Assembly: GCA_028713935.1 (NCBI GenBank) | Contig: JAQTNI010000060.1 | Span: 1-5,049, forward strand | DNA length: 5,049 nt | Source of the DNA: Candidatus Iainarchaeum sp. | GTDB taxonomy: Archaea > Iainarchaeota > Iainarchaeia > Iainarchaeales > GCA-2688035 | Direction of reading: 5' to 3' | Shown here: in pieces, positions 433 to 5,049 of the stretch | Layout of the letters: every line of letters starts with the position of its first letter | How positions within the stretch are numbered: the first letter of the stretch is position 1 | The notes under the pieces: model-generated | Told to the model about the DNA's origin: nothing | Databases searched by the model: none | Seen by the model: only the letters and a program-made list of their open reading frames with translations | Program-made: the position numbers and the translations under genes

Positions 433-1377
433 GTGGTATTAATTCCTGCTTTTAACGAAGAAAAAACAATTGCCCGGGTAATAAAAGAAATTCCCAAAAA
501 AATTTTGGGGATAGGCGAAATAAAAATAATTGTGGTGAACGACGGGAGTTCAGACAGGACAATTGAAGAGGCAAAAAAAGCAGGGGCAGGCCTGGTTGTT
601 TCACATGAATCCAACAAGGGCCTGGGCGTTGCGTTCAGGACTGGAATCGAAAATGCATTAAAGGCTGGCGCTGACATTATTGTGAACATAGATGCCGACA
701 TGCAGTTCAATCCAAAAGACATTCCAAAAATAATACGGCCGATTCTTGATGGAAAGGCCGATTTTGTAACATGCACGAGATTCAAGGACAAAACGATTTC
801 CCCAGAAATGCCGTTCATCAAGAAATTCGGCAACAATGTTTTTACAAAACTGATTTCAATTCTTGCAAAGCAGAAATTTACAGACACGCAGTGCGGGTTC
901 AGGGCATACAGCAGGGAAACGGCACTGCACCTCAATCTCTTCGGAAAGCACACTTATACCCAGGAGGCATTGCTTGACGCAATTGAAAAAGGAATGCGCA
1001 TTGTGGAAGTCCCCTGCGTAGTGAAAGGCCAGCGCGAAGGAAAATCAAGGGTGGTTGAAAACTGGTTTGCTTATTCCACAAAAGCCCTGCTGATAATCAT
1101 AAGGACAGTGCGGGACCACAGGCCATTGGAATTCTTTGGAGGCATGGGTTTTGCATTGTTTGCAGCAGGAACAATAAGCGCACTATGGCTCTGGGCAAGG
1201 CTGCTTGCCGAACACATAATAGACCCTTTCATGTGGGTGGCATATGCGGATGTCATATTGATTGTCCTTGGGTTTCTTCTGGCTGTCCTGGCAATGATTG
1301 CCGACATGAACTCGCGGCAGAGAAAACTCACAGAAGAAATCCTTTACCGCATAAAAAAGCAGGAATTTGAAAAATAA
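433..1377 (+). CDS. Family 2 glycosyltransferase, polyprenyl/dolichyl-phosphate sugar synthase-like (DPM1/GtrB/ArnC-type), with a C-terminal two-helix membrane anchor
   Basis: 314-aa ORF. GTG 433 is the first canonical start after the in-frame stop at 403-405. GT-A hallmarks: VLIPAFNEE at the N-terminus, VVNDGSSDRT, the DXD motif NIDADMQF (GAT GCC GAC at 691-699), and TDTQCGFRAY. Two hydrophobic C-terminal segments (FFGGMGFALFAAGTISALWLWARLL and WVAYADVILIVLGFLLAVLAMIADM) match the anchor seen in polyprenyl-phosphate glycosyltransferases. Stop TAA at 1375-1377. Confidence 0.9.
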   Translation: MVLIPAFNEEKTIARVIKEIPKKILGIGEIKIIVVNDGSSDRTIEEAKKAGAGLVVSHESNKGLGVAFRTGIENALKAGADIIVNIDADMQFNPKDIPKIIRPILDGKADFVTCTRFKDKTISPEMPFIKKFGNNVFTKLISILAKQKFTDTQCGFRAYSRETALHLNLFGKHTYTQEALLDAIEKGMRIVEVPCVVKGQREGKSRVVENWFAYSTKALLIIIRTVRDHRPLEFFGGMGFALFAAGTISALWLWARLLAEHIIDPFMWVAYADVILIVLGFLLAVLAMIADMNSRQRKLTEEILYRIKKQEFEK

Positions 1378-1386: not shown

Positions 1387-2571
1387 TTGAACATTCTTTT
1401 TTTGAGCTCATCCTACCCGATTTTTGTAAAAGGCCACTGGCAGAACTGGAGCCCAAGGCATGAAACAGCAAAAAGGCTTGTGGAAAAAGGCATAAATGTT
1501 TTTGTGGTGGCGCCGCACACGGAAGGCGCTGCTTTTGAAGAAACAATAGACGGAGTAAAAATTTACAGGTTTGGAAAAAATGCGCCACTTGATTTCAGGA
1601 GAATAAGCCCTTTCGCAGTGCCTGTATACATGCACCAGTTTTATTCAAAGGCAAAAAAAGTCTGCGGGAAAAACAAAATAAGCCTGGTCCATGGCTTTTG
1701 GGCAATTCCAAGCGGAACAATAGCGGCAAGAATTGCAAAAGAATGCAAAATCCCGGGCATTGTTGAGCTTCTCGGAAGCGATGTGTTCCTGGGCCTGAAA
1801 AATTTCCTTACAAAAGGGCTTGTAAAAAACGCGATTGAAAAGGCGGATTACGTTTTTGCAGACGGCTACAGCCTAATTGATTTTGCAAAAAGCAGGGGCA
1901 TTAAAATCAGCAGAAGCTTCGTGCACTTCTACGAGCCTGAAATGCATGACCCTTCAAAGGAAAAAATACTTGAAATGAGAAAAAAATGGGGAATTGGCGA
2001 TAATGATTTTGTGCTAATGGTCAGCAGGTTCAAGGGAAAAATTTACGGCGCGGAATACGCGATAAGGGCCATGCCCGAAATACTGAAGGCGGTTCCAAAT
2101 GCAAAATTGCTTCTTGTTGGAAAAGCAGGGGATTATGAAAAGGCAATCGAGGAAGAAATAAAAAAATCAGGCGCAGAAAAAAACATTTCAAAAACAGGGT
2201 TTCTTGACAAGCAAGAATACTGGTGCGCATTAAAAATTTCAGATATCTACATAACACCTTCCCTTTCAGACAGCACTTCTGTGGGATTGCTTGAGGCAAT
2301 GTTTGCCGAAAAGCCAATTATTGCAACAGGCATAGGGGACAATCCATACTGGGTAAAAAACAATTCAAACGGAAAAATAATTCTCCCTGCAGACAGCCCG
2401 GAAATTGCCAGGGCAGTCATTGAACTTAAAAATTCGGATTTATCAAAAATCGGCGCTGCAAACAAAAAAAGCCTGGAAAAAGAGCACTGCACCTGGAAGG
2501 AAATAATAGAAAAATACATTGAAATATATGAAACCTGCATCAAGGAAAAACAAAGCCTTGGCAAAAATTAG
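1387..2571 (+). CDS. Family 4 (GT-B fold, GT1 superfamily) glycosyltransferase
   Basis: 394-aa ORF with a TTG start. The N-terminus MNILFLSSSYP is the usual GT4 first beta-strand/loop, which supports the TTG start. The C-terminal half carries the GT4 signature region PSLSDSTSVGLLEAMFAEKPIIATGIGDNPYWVKNNSNGKII. This is a D-x7-E variant of the E-x7-E motif, followed by the nucleotide-sugar binding loop. Stop TAG at 2569-2571. Confidence 0.9.
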   Translation: MNILFLSSSYPIFVKGHWQNWSPRHETAKRLVEKGINVFVVAPHTEGAAFEETIDGVKIYRFGKNAPLDFRRISPFAVPVYMHQFYSKAKKVCGKNKISLVHGFWAIPSGTIAARIAKECKIPGIVELLGSDVFLGLKNFLTKGLVKNAIEKADYVFADGYSLIDFAKSRGIKISRSFVHFYEPEMHDPSKEKILEMRKKWGIGDNDFVLMVSRFKGKIYGAEYAIRAMPEILKAVPNAKLLLVGKAGDYEKAIEEEIKKSGAEKNISKTGFLDKQEYWCALKISDIYITPSLSDSTSVGLLEAMFAEKPIIATGIGDNPYWVKNNSNGKIILPADSPEIARAVIELKNSDLSKIGAANKKSLEKEHCTWKEIIEKYIEIYETCIKEKQSLGKN

Positions 2572-2606
2572 TTTATGAAACACTGGAATTTTAAAAAAAT
2601 ATTAAA

Positions 2607-2711
2607 ATGCAAAACCCAATCTTAAAATATCTTACGCCCAATCAAATATACAAGGCAAACAAAAAAAGCCATGGAAAATACTGCAGCGGGCCAATATGCC
2701 ATAAGGCTTGA
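2607..2711 (+). CDS. Candidate small ORF (34 aa) directly upstream of the radical SAM gene; speculative
   Basis: ATG 2607 to TGA 2709-2711 gives MQNPILKYLTPNQIYKANKKSHGKYCSGPICHKA. It ends 6 nt before the radical SAM ATG and is in the same frame. The peptide is basic with a C-terminal C-x4-C. No convincing Shine-Dalgarno site is present. In AT-rich sequence a 34-codon open stretch is not statistically remarkable. Confidence 0.2.
   Translation: MQNPILKYLTPNQIYKANKKSHGKYCSGPICHKA
2615..2651. repeat. Two-copy direct repeat CCCAATC-(0-2 nt)-AAA(A)TAT
   Basis: Copy 1 is CCCAATCTTAAAATATC (2615-2631) and copy 2 is CCCAATCAAATATAC (2637-2651). The copy starts are 22 bp apart, about two helical turns. 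Each copy abuts a TATA-like A/T block. Confidence 0.5.
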
Positions 2712-2717
2712 TTTTTT

Positions 2718-3776
2718 ATGAAAAAAGGGATAACTGGAATTTTCAAGGCTTCAAAAATTGCGAAGCAGGTGCTGATAAGCAAGATTACAGGGAAAAGGAT
2801 TCCAATTGCTGTGAACTTTCACCTGAATACAGACTGCAACCTGAGATGCAAATATTGCTATGCAAACGTTGACAGCAGGTTTGATTCGCATCCCGTGGAT
2901 TTGAACACTGAACAGGTTCTGGGCCTGATTGATGAAATGTACAAGGCGGGAACAAGATGGCTCATTCTTCTCGGGGGAGAACCATTGCTCAGGCAGGACA
3001 TAGGGGAGATTGTTGCGCATATAAAAAAGAAAGGCATTATCTGCGAAATTGTCACAAACGGAACTCTCGTAAAAAACAGGATTGACGCGATAAAGGATGT
3101 TGATTTGCTTTGCGTAAGCTGTGACGGTGACGAGATTGCAAATGACATTATGCGCGGTAACGGGACTTATAAGAAAATAGTCGAAGGAATAGGGGCGGCA
3201 AGTGCAAACGGGATTAACATAAGGATTCATGCGGTTCTTTCCCGCCATAACATAAATAAAAAGGCGCTTGACAGCCTTGTGGAACTGGCTGAAAAAAACA
3301 GGGCGACCCTTGGCTATTCAGTTGCAATAACCCACGAGTATAACAATATGCCAGAACTTAATGTTCCGGACAATGAAACAAGGGAATTCTGGAAAATGCT
3401 GAAGGAATACAAAAAAAAGGGAAAACCTGTTTACAACACCATTGCAGTGCTTGATTATCTTCTTGGCTGGCCAATTTCTTACCAAAAGGTAATAAAAAAA
3501 ATGGAAGACTGGCCTGACAAAAAATTCAGGCCAAGGCCTTGTTTTGCCGGCAAAAGAATGTGTTACATTGACTGCCAGGGTTTTGTGTATCCCTGCATTG
3601 TCCTTGGCGTTAAAAAAGGCCTTAATGTAAAAGAAGTCGGATTCAAAAAGGCATGGGATGCATTGGAATCTTTCAGCTGCGGAGCATGCGGTTTTCCGCA
3701 GTATATCGAGACAAACAATGTCCTTGATTTAAAGGCCCACAGCATTCTTCTGGGGTTAAAGACTTTTTTGAAATAA
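2718..3776 (+). CDS. Radical SAM enzyme with a truncated SPASM/twitch-like auxiliary Fe-S domain
   Basis: 352-aa ORF. The canonical CX3CX2C cluster motif is in NFHLNTDCNLRCKYCY (C40/C44/C47; TGC at 2835-2837 and 2856-2858). The GGEPLL SAM-binding motif is in LILLGGEPLLRQD. The C-terminus has six further Cys: CFAGKRMCYIDCQGFVYPC (which fits CX9-15GX4C) and then CGAC. Stop TAA at 3774-3776. Confidence 0.9.
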   Translation: MKKGITGIFKASKIAKQVLISKITGKRIPIAVNFHLNTDCNLRCKYCYANVDSRFDSHPVDLNTEQVLGLIDEMYKAGTRWLILLGGEPLLRQDIGEIVAHIKKKGIICEIVTNGTLVKNRIDAIKDVDLLCVSCDGDEIANDIMRGNGTYKKIVEGIGAASANGINIRIHAVLSRHNINKKALDSLVELAEKNRATLGYSVAITHEYNNMPELNVPDNETREFWKMLKEYKKKGKPVYNTIAVLDYLLGWPISYQKVIKKMEDWPDKKFRPRPCFAGKRMCYIDCQGFVYPCIVLGVKKGLNVKEVGFKKAWDALESFSCGACGFPQYIETNNVLDLKAHSILLGLKTFLK

Positions 3777-3777
3777 A

Positions 3778-3782
3778 GAGGG
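3778..3782 (+). promoter_or_regulatory. Shine-Dalgarno site for the Cys-rich protein gene
   Basis: GAGGG lies 5 nt upstream of ATG 3788 and starts 2 nt after the radical SAM stop codon. Confidence 0.6.
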
Positions 3783-3787
3783 AACAA

Positions 3788-4801
3788 ATGAATGCTTATT
3801 GTGAAACGGATTTTAAAAATTTTTCAGTAAAAAAAGGCGGGAAAACCTTTTGCCATGCGGATTTTGACAATGGGCTCTGCTTTTCCGCCTTGTATTCCGC
3901 AGTGCCTTACCTGTTAAGCTTTTCAAGAGGGTCCTGGTTCAGCTGGGAAAAGGATAAAAATGCAGTGACTGCGGTATGTTCCGCTGGAATAATTGCCATG
4001 GAAATAAGAAAGCTTGAAAATAAAATGCAAATCCGGATAACAAAATCCTTTGGAAACTGCGCCAGAAACCACAAAGAGGGGGATTTGTTTTTTGCAAATA
4101 AAAAGGATTTTGATTGGAATGCGTTCAATTCAATTTTTCCGTTTTTGTTTGTTGGCACAAAAAAAACAAAAATTAAAATTTGCGCCAGCGATTCTGATGA
4201 AGCCTTTGAATTTTCAGGCCTTTGCAAAAAAAAAGATTCTTTTACAGGCGCCTGCGGCTTGAACAGCAGTATTAAGGAAAATGCCAGCGTAAGAGTTTCG
4301 GGAATGGCAAGAAAATGCAGGTACCAGAAAAAGGCAGGCCAAAGGTATTCCTTTGAAGAACTGATGCCAAAAAATTTCTGTGCTTTTGCATACTGCTCGG
4401 CCTATCCCCTTGCGCTTTCCCTTATTTACAATGGCAGGCCTCTTGGCTTGGATTCAAGAATTGTTTTCTGCCCCGGCTGCAGCAACAGGGTTAAAATGGA
4501 AATTTTTACAAGGCAGAGAAGAATGGCACCTGTTTACAACTTGGCTGAAAAGGCATTCAGATTTTTTGGAATTCCACAGGATGTAATCGAGAGAAAAGCA
4601 GTGGCGAGGGCTGTTGAAGTGACCGGGAAATGCCCTGCCGGAATAAAAAAGGGATTTGAAATAGAATTCAATTTTAATGACCAAAAAAAAATTTGCCCTG
4701 CATCGCTGTATACTCTTCTGCCACTGTTGGCAGGGGAAGGCGAAGGCGAAAAGTGCTCTTGCCCGAGCATTTTGTGCAGGGTAGAATACGAGGTAAAATA
4801 A
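3788..4801 (+). CDS. Cysteine-rich protein of unknown function with four tandem TIGR04076-like modules
   Basis: 337-aa ORF with a good SD site and 18 Cys (5.3%). There is no signal peptide or obvious TM segment. Four internally homologous modules are visible: residues 1-77, 80-143, 166-243 and 272-337. From memory, the shared pattern resembles the ~90-aa TIGR04076 family. That pattern is G/K-x-C, then K-x-G-x-x-F/Y, then a Cys followed by a hydrophobic Pro-containing helix, then Gly, then a late Cys and a beta-strand ending in E. An HMM search is needed to confirm the family. Stop TAA at 4799-4801. Confidence 0.8.
   Translation: MNAYCETDFKNFSVKKGGKTFCHADFDNGLCFSALYSAVPYLLSFSRGSWFSWEKDKNAVTAVCSAGIIAMEIRKLENKMQIRITKSFGNCARNHKEGDLFFANKKDFDWNAFNSIFPFLFVGTKKTKIKICASDSDEAFEFSGLCKKKDSFTGACGLNSSIKENASVRVSGMARKCRYQKKAGQRYSFEELMPKNFCAFAYCSAYPLALSLIYNGRPLGLDSRIVFCPGCSNRVKMEIFTRQRRMAPVYNLAEKAFRFFGIPQDVIERKAVARAVEVTGKCPAGIKKGFEIEFNFNDQKKICPASLYTLLPLLAGEGEGEKCSCPSILCRVEYEVK
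4790..4794 (+). promoter_or_regulatory. Shine-Dalgarno site for the epimerase/dehydratase gene
   Basis: GAGGT lies 9 nt upstream of ATG 4804, inside the end of the preceding gene. Confidence 0.55.
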
Positions 4802-4803
4802 GT

Positions 4804-5049
4804 ATGGGCAGAAAGCCGAATATTCTTGTAATAGGGGCAACTGGTTTTATCGGAAGCCGGCTTGTAAAAAGACTTGTTGAGCACGGCAATAAACCCAGGA
4901 TTCTGGCAAGAAAACAAAGCAATCTTGCCTTGCTCAGTGAAATTGACAAAAAAAAAATTGAAATTTTTTACGGGGATGTCACAAACAAAGGGCAATTAAG
5001 AAAAGCGATAAGGGGAAGCGATTATGTTTTCAATATTTCAGGTGTTTTG
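4804..5049 (+). CDS. NAD(P)-dependent epimerase/dehydratase (extended SDR), N-terminal part; continues past the right edge
   Basis: Absent from the ORF track because it has no stop in the window. ATG 4804 lies 2 nt after the upstream stop. Translation: MGRKPNILVIGATGFIGSRLVKRLVEHGNKPRILARKQSNLALLSEIDKKKIEIFYGDVTNKGQLRKAIRGSDYVFNISGV. It has the Rossmann GxxGxxG motif (GATGFIGS), the acidic/basic end of beta-2, and D-V-T followed by V-F-N-x-S-G. This layout is typical of sugar-nucleotide epimerases, dehydratases and reductases. Confidence 0.85.
   Translation, partial: MGRKPNILVIGATGFIGSRLVKRLVEHGNKPRILARKQSNLALLSEIDKKKIEIFYGDVTNKGQLRKAIRGSDYVFNISGVL

Follow-up and report, generated by a model that had tools for sequence, protein, structure and literature searches.

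Radical S-adenosylmethionine (SAM) enzymes that work with a dedicated protein partner are already known. In apramycin deoxygenation, the radical SAM diol dehydratase AprD4 is accompanied by the NAD(P)H-dependent reductase AprD3. Dph3 (Kti11), a small Cys-ligated iron protein, is the dedicated electron donor to the radical SAM-like enzyme Dph1-Dph2, and QhpC is a thioether-crosslinked subunit that is matured by the radical SAM enzyme QhpD. BtrN, the 2-deoxy-scyllo-inosamine dehydrogenase of butirosin, is the prototype of the radical SAM enzymes with a twitch domain, i.e. a shortened SPASM domain with one bound auxiliary cluster (PMC9012708). The auxiliary [4Fe-4S] cluster of BtrN is held by four Cys and has been proposed as the electron acceptor in a two-electron oxidation, the auxiliary site of MoaA having three Cys (PMC9012708). 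Here, we describe a putative twitch-type radical SAM enzyme in a contig of 5049 bp, analyzed over its whole length and called the window below, which belongs to a metagenome-assembled genome of Candidatus Iainarchaeum sp., a DPANN archaeon. Its gene is paired with that of a Cys-rich protein made of four tandem, uncharacterized domains, and no partner of this kind is known.

The radical SAM gene (positions 2718-3776, plus strand; stop codon TAA at 3774-3776) encodes 352 aa and is followed, after 11 nt (3777-3787, plus strand), by the Cys-rich gene (3788-4801, plus strand; stop codon TAA at 4799-4801), which encodes 337 aa with 18 Cys. A GAGGG ribosome-binding site in the spacer (3778-3782) ends 5 nt short of the Cys-rich ATG, and the gene of a short-chain dehydrogenase/reductase (SDR) starts 2 nt downstream of the Cys-rich stop codon. 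An earlier note, made from the letters of this DNA, had described this layout, and reading the sequence again confirmed the open reading frame ends, the GAGGG site and the start of the SDR gene. The same note had suggested that the two proteins are functionally coupled in a partnership that had not been reported; we likewise found no description of a radical SAM/TIGR04076 partnership (TIGR04076 being the family of the Cys-rich protein) in the searchable literature.

Linkage of the two genes across genomes

The coupling was examined from both sides, in homologous loci that are designated by L numbers. On the side of the Cys-rich protein, an adjacent, same-strand radical SAM gene of this family was found in 7/7 examined relatives with readable flanks (L005, L007, L134, L135, L139, L140, L141), the contigs L133 and L138 being too short for adjacency to be judged. 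On the side of the radical SAM enzyme, the partner was present in the window, L001, L002 (where the Cys-rich protein is split across two genes) and L091. The pair was therefore adjacent in 11/11 interpretable contexts, archaeal as well as bacterial, in both gene orders and in changing surroundings. Among the hosts, L141 carries bacterial rRNA, and L139 and L140 have a bacterial gene content. The genes of the pair overlapped by 4-26 nt or were separated by 1-22 nt in the homologous loci, with the exception of L091 (about 190 nt).

As a control for chance adjacency, we inspected 80 loci around unrelated radical SAM genes (about 1 Mb) and found a member of the Cys-rich family in none of them (0/80). 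These control loci surround distant radical SAM genes that were obtained by scanning contigs with the full radical SAM alignment, a scan driven by the generic motif CN[LM]RCxYCY. Furthermore, the two proteins have diverged in parallel, as indicated by the correlation of their pairwise identities over nine pairs (r = 0.64, Mantel p about 2e-4). The functional coupling suggested by the earlier note is thus strongly supported by adjacency in both gene orders, by overlap or close spacing and by parallel divergence. Because this tight linkage recurs in archaea and bacteria, we conclude that the radical SAM enzyme and the Cys-rich protein most likely act together, as a two-part and so far uncharacterized enzyme.

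Properties of the two proteins

The radical SAM protein matched PF04055 with an E-value of 8e-24 (85.1 bits for a gathering threshold of 29.5). Its CX3CX2C motif (C40/C44/C47) was invariant across 39 relatives in an alignment of the clade, as were five further Cys (C132, C275, C293, C321 and C324). Four of these make up an auxiliary-cluster motif, C275-X12-G288-X4-C293 (i.e. C275-X17-C293) ... C321-X2-C324, of which all named positions are invariant, and there is no CX2CX5CX3C run. The earlier note had called the enzyme SPASM/twitch-like. A full SPASM domain has a seven-Cys C-terminal motif and two auxiliary clusters; the match to PF13186/TIGR04085 stayed below the cutoff (17.4 versus 21.5 bits) and just four C-terminal Cys are invariant. 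For this reason the enzyme is best classed as twitch-type, with one putative four-Cys auxiliary cluster, so that the first half of the double label falls and the second stands.

In the AlphaFold2 (AF2) model of the enzyme (predicted local distance difference test score, pLDDT, 94.7), a single helix (residues 2-24) precedes the strand at residues 31-35 and the CX3CX2C motif at 40-47. Since only one helix stands before the radical SAM core, there is no peptide-binding domain of the type of the RiPP recognition element (RRE; RiPP, a peptide made by the ribosome and modified after translation), and a Pfam scan of the protein gave no match to a PqqD/RRE domain. Foldseek assigned a probability of 1.00 to many radical SAM structures. 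The neighbors with a template modeling (TM) score of about 0.55-0.63 were a mixture of nucleoside, nucleotide and sugar enzymes (BlsE, viperin, DesII, MoaA) and of peptide maturases (SkfB, CteB, SuiB, anSME); the predicted fold by itself leaves the substrate class undecided.

None of the named radical SAM equivalogs of NCBIfam could be retained, the scores (bits/cutoff) being 109/306 for PTO1314, 102/500 for AhbD, 95/515 for NirJ, 89/284 for MoaA, 86/265 for MftC, 83/180 for viperin and 62/225 for HpnH. Membership in a viperin-type defense system was also rejected, as the score was below the cutoff and the PADLOC pVip matches span core residues 30-197 alone. Elsewhere in the family, two or three paralogues of more distant members are arranged head to tail, and no Cys-rich partner lies near them (L093 6076-9304; L094 3191-6419; L096, L097, L098, L099). 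In L003/L004 (6001-7068), as well as L089 and L088, a close radical SAM orthologue with 51% identity faces a 724-aa NosD/beta-helix/PKD protein among several B12-binding radical SAM genes.

The partner is unusually rich in Cys, with 18 in 337 residues (5.3%) as compared with ~1% in the glycosyltransferases (GT2 and GT4) and the SDR encoded in the window (binomial p about 2e-8). It matched the NCBIfam family TIGR04076 with 63.4 bits (cutoff 33), its best stretch (residues 168-239) aligning with profile positions 6-86 of 91, and 25/26 of its relatives matched this family as well (best E-value 1e-42). Among the profiles put forward by the earlier note, PF04055 and TIGR04076 were thus found above their cutoffs and PF13186/TIGR04085 below. 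Four modules could be delimited approximately at residues 1-78, 79-150, 163-245 and 266-337. Sub-alignments of the four were mutually homologous (hhalign probability 86-98.7%, E-values 5e-6 to 3e-16). The exact count, hhalign and the family match therefore bore out the picture of an 18-Cys, four-module protein.

No function for TIGR04076 is given in the literature that mentions the family, which contains speculation only. Since the family is catalogued without a known function, it is not the well-characterized family with an unrelated role that the earlier note had held to be fatal to its proposal. A Pfam scan of the Cys-rich protein gave no family at E ≤ 0.1, and thus no known Fe-S or zinc domain; no sequence match was found in the PDB, even with an alignment profile of a single module, and tblastn against plasmids found nothing. 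AF2 predicted one compact body (pLDDT 90.4; predicted TM score 0.90). A Foldseek search of this model against the PDB and BFVD returned no match at E ≤ 0.001, the resemblance to sliding clamps (TM about 0.15) being at the level of noise.

A word-index homology search returned the protein itself alone from the single sequence and three proteins from a 26-sequence profile. An exhaustive HMMER search of 1.84 billion representatives yielded 219 clusters of the Cys-rich family. Among the best 150 of these 219 clusters, about 33 had four modules, 57 had two (~180-260 aa), and 50 were proteins of 260-450 aa in which the pattern of the C-terminal half alone scored best. Family members keep the fold at 20-38% identity. 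One 1933-aa protein (P0216; family proteins carry P numbers), in which 13 short stretches match the Cys-rich query and which also has a Pfam HPIP_like match, probably represents another kind of Cys-rich repeat protein.

Ten Cys (C31, C64, C91, C156, C177, C198, C228, C282, C303 and C325) were 92-100% conserved in 150 representatives, and most are directly followed by Pro; the other eight (C5, C22, C132, C146, C203, C231, C323 and C330) were not conserved. Conserved motifs without Cys were WEKDK, YP..L..LY and PQD. Each module has three canonical Cys positions (a, b and c). The N-terminal half retains b and c of module 1 and a of module 2, which are invariant, whereas a of module 1 and b and c of module 2 have been lost together in the subfamily of the window and kept together in relatives such as P0122, P0132, P0147, P0155 and P0158. 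This pattern was read by inspecting the alignment, because an automated count of co-occurrence was confounded by unrelated Cys. A search for compensating His or Cys at positions 180 and 203 was negative. The retention of one triad and the joint loss of the complementary one argue for sites between modules. In the simplest reading, each site would be formed by b and c of one module and a of the next, i.e. C31/C64/C91, C198/C228/C282 and C303/C325/C177, and the pattern of conserved Cys suggests that these are metal or Fe-S sites.

Genes around the pair

Fusions and recurrent neighbors offered further indications. In P0134, three modules are joined to a DUF362 domain and a 2x[4Fe-4S] ferredoxin (L133 18-1982). 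A separate gene of this type, for DUF362 plus a 2x[4Fe-4S] ferredoxin, precedes the radical SAM gene in L135 (931-2091) and lies near the pair in L002 (10832-11971); its top NCBIfam match was the Npun_F2552 family, below the cutoff. In P0151 and P0219, a classical SDR is placed N-terminal to four modules, and in P0167 four modules are followed by an SDR. An SDR gene comes after the pair in the window and L001 and is found nearby in L002. The SDRs of the system had lipid-type reductases as top matches (OleD, HpnA, SdmB, mycolate reductase), all below the cutoff.

A divergent PurH-like paralogue, with an MGS-like and an AICARFT domain, directly flanks the pair in 4/12 contexts, which belong to different lineages (L001 3215-4744; L002 8266-9792; L140 11293-12798; L138 855-1145, where the gene is cut by the contig end). 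We rejected the possibility that this is bona fide PurH, as the copies of L001, L002 and L140 scored 158-162 bits, below both purH cutoffs (402 and 528 bits). Identity between copies is 44-47%. The value of 44-45% among those of L001, L002 and L140, together with the low purH scores, points to a paralogous subfamily of its own, which looks like one more component of the system. Other neighbors included a phosphoribosyltransferase (L002, L135) and a NUDIX hydrolase (L005). In L135 (4361-7591), and likewise in L136 and L137, the pair is directly followed by genes for adenine phosphoribosyltransferase, adenine deaminase and purine nucleoside phosphorylase, each of which exceeded its NCBIfam cutoff, and then by three more radical SAM genes, two of them with B12-binding domains. 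The purine genes may serve the salvage of 5'-deoxyadenosine and adenine, or be a clue to the substrate. More generally, the PurH-like, phosphoribosyltransferase, purine and NUDIX neighbors point to a nucleotide-like substrate, or again to salvage of 5'-deoxyadenosine.

The plus strand of the window carries five genes, those for GT2, GT4, the radical SAM enzyme, the Cys-rich protein and a truncated SDR. The GT2 gene (433-1377, plus strand) and the GT4 gene (1387-2571, plus strand) were identified by Pfam and NCBIfam matches. The GT2 product resembles AglJ, an enzyme of archaeal S-layer N-glycosylation, and polyprenyl-phosphate sugar synthases, its AglJ-like match lying below the cutoff (129 versus 325 bits). 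On the minus strand (2-358), transcribed divergently from the GT2 gene, a class I SAM-dependent methyltransferase (Methyltransf_11, 2e-10) is cut by the contig end after its N-terminal 119 aa. The SDR (4804-5049, plus strand; ATG at 4804) is likewise truncated, leaving the N-terminal 82 aa of an extended SDR with a Rossmann fold, which matched NAD_binding_10, NmrA, Epimerase and 3Beta_HSD in Pfam (1e-12 to 4e-11) and, below the cutoff, HpnA as the top NCBIfam family.

The GT4 and radical SAM genes are separated by an AT-rich intergenic spacer of 146 nt (2572-2717, plus strand), as read from the sequence, which probably holds the promoter of the radical SAM/Cys-rich/SDR transcription unit. On account of this spacer, the three genes would form a transcription unit of their own rather than the tail of a glycosyltransferase operon. 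Rfam scans matched no family in the window, including this spacer, and no element near the pair in 11 loci, including no ZTP riboswitch.

The earlier note had placed the pair inside a glycosylation operon. GT2 and GT4 do lie upstream on the same strand, but the spacer separates them from the pair and the methyltransferase is encoded on the minus strand. In the other loci, glycosyltransferases were present near the pair in L001, L133 and L134 (as in the window), with a GT2 of about 230 aa in these three, and methyltransferases in L001, L002 and L141 as well as the window. Yet, glycosyltransferases were absent from 6/12 contexts (L005, L007, L135, L139, L140, L141), two more contexts being too short. 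A glycosylation operon was therefore rejected as the defining context, and the proposal that both proteins act on a sugar made by the flanking glycosyltransferases would account for the local context only.

Proposed function of the pair and comparison with known systems

We propose that the pair is one enzyme system, in which a small-molecule-tailoring twitch radical SAM enzyme is combined with a folded metal- or Fe-S-binding accessory subunit acting as its redox partner, and we give this explanation a probability of about 45%. The enzyme would have a BtrN-like, fully Cys-ligated auxiliary [4Fe-4S] cluster and abstract a hydrogen atom from a small molecule, which might be nucleotide- or nucleoside-like or else sugar- or lipid-linked. 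The Cys-rich protein would bind metal, most probably Fe-S clusters, in about three sites at the module interfaces through its Cys-Pro positions. As a dedicated redox partner, it would conduct electrons to or from the clusters of the radical SAM enzyme, a conduit that could be linked to the DUF362-ferredoxin in some lineages. A further role could be the docking of the downstream SDR, by which an oxidized or dehydrated intermediate would be processed; by analogy with BtrN, a keto product handed from the radical SAM enzyme to the SDR would make a coherent scheme.

A metal or Fe-S accessory subunit is favored because the Cys-rich protein behaves like a subunit and because the radical SAM enzyme has neither an RRE nor a second auxiliary cluster. 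Of the options raised by the earlier note, that of a metal or Fe-S redox or chaperone partner is accordingly the one that fits best with the conserved Cys-Pro positions, the DUF362-ferredoxin fusion and the confidently predicted globular fold.

Several points weigh against this explanation. Close radical SAM orthologues in contigs annotated as Lokiarchaeia (L003, L004, L089 and probably L088) have no adjacent partner. We infer the Cys triads and the metal or Fe-S sites of the Cys-rich protein, like electron transfer and the nature of the substrate, from sequences and predicted models. The hints that the neighborhood gives about the substrate conflict, the SDRs appearing to be lipid-type and the PurH-like paralogue and phosphoribosyltransferase nucleotide-type. 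Finally, since SDRs move hydride rather than single electrons, the fusion with an SDR is no less compatible with a scaffold or a substrate-binding role than with a redox role.

This last point bears on the possibility that the Cys-rich protein has no redox role and serves as a scaffold or substrate-binding subunit (with structural zinc, for example), which would hold the substrate or bridge the radical SAM enzyme and the SDR to channel a reactive intermediate. The occurrence of SDR fusions at either terminus, and of an SDR gene after the pair in the window and L001, would be well explained in this way. The compact, pseudo-symmetric predicted fold is also consistent with it, and the WEKDK, YP..L..LY and PQD motifs could line a binding surface. 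However, the conserved Cys occur singly, at wide spacing and before a Pro, unlike the CxxC knuckles that are typical of structural zinc, and the fusion with, and adjacency to, DUF362-ferredoxin suggest an electron-transfer context. We consider a scaffold rather unlikely, though it is the most probable of the alternatives.

We also considered that the Cys-rich protein might be the substrate of the radical SAM enzyme, i.e. a protein-sized analogue of Cys-rich RiPP precursors or of QhpC, with a modification site repeated in each module. Peptides that contain Cys are modified by many SPASM/twitch enzymes, and the structural neighbors of the enzyme include SkfB, CteB and SuiB; in addition, the two genes are tightly coupled and the Cys positions are repeated. 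Yet, the enzyme has neither an RRE nor an N-terminal extension and only one auxiliary cluster, the fold of the Cys-rich protein is conserved as a whole down to 20-38% identity with no leader/core layout, and neither protease nor exporter genes were seen in the 12 contexts examined. Fusion to enzymes, splitting into two genes in L002, conservation of the whole fold and the lack of conservation of 8/18 Cys indicate a structured subunit rather than a RiPP-type substrate. The substrate-or-scaffold option of the earlier note is therefore weakened in its first half, by the SDR fusions, the conservation of 10/18 Cys, the lack of an RRE and the absence of protease and exporter genes from these contexts, and we regard a substrate role as doubtful.

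Another reading is that the Cys-rich protein donates sulfur, either through tri-Cys [4Fe-4S] clusters whose free iron binds an extra sulfide or through sacrificial clusters, for the formation of a C-S bond by the radical SAM enzyme on a nucleotide- or sugar-like substrate. The candidate sites have three Cys and, judging from conservation, no invariant fourth ligand. There are precedents for both variants: tri-Cys [4Fe-4S] clusters carry sulfur in TtuA, NcsA and some LarE enzymes, and sulfur insertion by the radical SAM enzymes BioB and LipA consumes auxiliary clusters. In addition, DUF362 and the N-terminal domain of LarA belong to a common Pfam clan (PMC11770544). However, no gene for a cysteine desulfurase, a thiocarboxylate carrier or a PP-loop ATPase turned up in the neighborhoods examined, the auxiliary cluster of the radical SAM enzyme appears to be fully Cys-ligated, and the reading is purely inferential; we judge it to be improbable. 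That the adjacency is incidental, the two genes being independent members of a surface-glycan gene cluster, would agree with the partnerless orthologues in L003 and L089 but is effectively refuted by the 11/11 adjacent contexts in both orders, the 0/80 control loci and the co-divergence.

If the accessory protein is a new multi-cluster electron-transfer or sulfur-carrying module, this would bear on how twitch radical SAM enzymes are reduced and re-oxidized in vivo. The absence of a solved fold and the fusions to SDRs or DUF362-ferredoxin add to its novelty as a partner. In any case, TIGR04076 gains a first consistent functional context, and a compact, testable set of genes is defined, comprising the radical SAM enzyme and the Cys-rich protein, to which an SDR, a PurH-like paralogue or DUF362-ferredoxin is often added. 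The strongest lead is the three- or four-gene module formed by the radical SAM enzyme, the TIGR04076 repeat protein, the PurH-like paralogue and the SDR. The hosts include DPANN and probably Asgard-related archaea, of which the surface and cofactor chemistry is poorly known. A more speculative extension, which we hold to be possible but unlikely, is that the TIGR04076 protein represents a new class of multi-center Fe-S proteins with clusters between pseudo-symmetric modules. Together with the twitch enzyme, the PurH-like paralogue and the SDR, it would then belong to an unrecognized pathway of DPANN and Asgard-type archaea and anaerobic bacteria, and this pathway would yield a modified metabolite or cofactor of nucleotide origin, or else a surface-glycan building block linked to a nucleotide or a lipid.

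Comparison with described families and systems shows how far each of them resembles the pair. The TIGR04076 profile describes a single domain of ~91 residues with three conserved Cys positions, which the modules of the Cys-rich protein share. This protein differs from the model by having four tandem copies instead of one, by the degeneration of half of one site pair and by its obligate pairing with a specific radical SAM clade. In QhpD/QhpC and the SCIFF-type ranthipeptide systems, a radical SAM enzyme of the SPASM/twitch family also stands beside a Cys-rich polypeptide. Their substrates, however, are short or are crosslinked subunits and, unlike the Cys-rich protein, are not fused to unrelated enzymes, and their maturases usually have two auxiliary clusters and often an RRE, both of which are absent here. 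Dph3 shares the concept of a Cys-ligated metalloprotein that feeds electrons to one SAM-cleaving Fe-S enzyme. Yet, it is a CSL zinc-finger/rubredoxin-like protein of ~80 aa with a CxxC-type site, whereas the Cys-rich protein, with its 337 aa and four modules, carries widely spaced single Cys-Pro positions and is predicted to have an unrelated fold.

AprD4 and AprD3 recall the radical SAM enzyme and the SDR: there too, the genes of a radical SAM enzyme and of a nicotinamide-dependent reductase occur together, and the two products act one after the other on a single sugar-like substrate. The likeness is one of arrangement, as AprD4/AprD3 have no third, Cys-rich component and the SDRs here match lipid-type reductases, below the cutoff. 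BtrN has no dedicated Cys-rich partner protein either; no significant sequence-family membership was found to link it to the radical SAM enzyme of the window, and it was not among the top Foldseek matches of that enzyme. Both enzymes are nevertheless small and devoid of a peptide-recognition domain, and the single C-terminal four-Cys auxiliary [4Fe-4S] cluster of BtrN (PMC9012708) has its counterpart in the four invariant C-terminal Cys (CX17C...CX2C) of the enzyme described here. Furthermore, the substrate of BtrN is a small polyol and its product a keto compound, a chemistry that would suit the SDR encoded downstream in the window.

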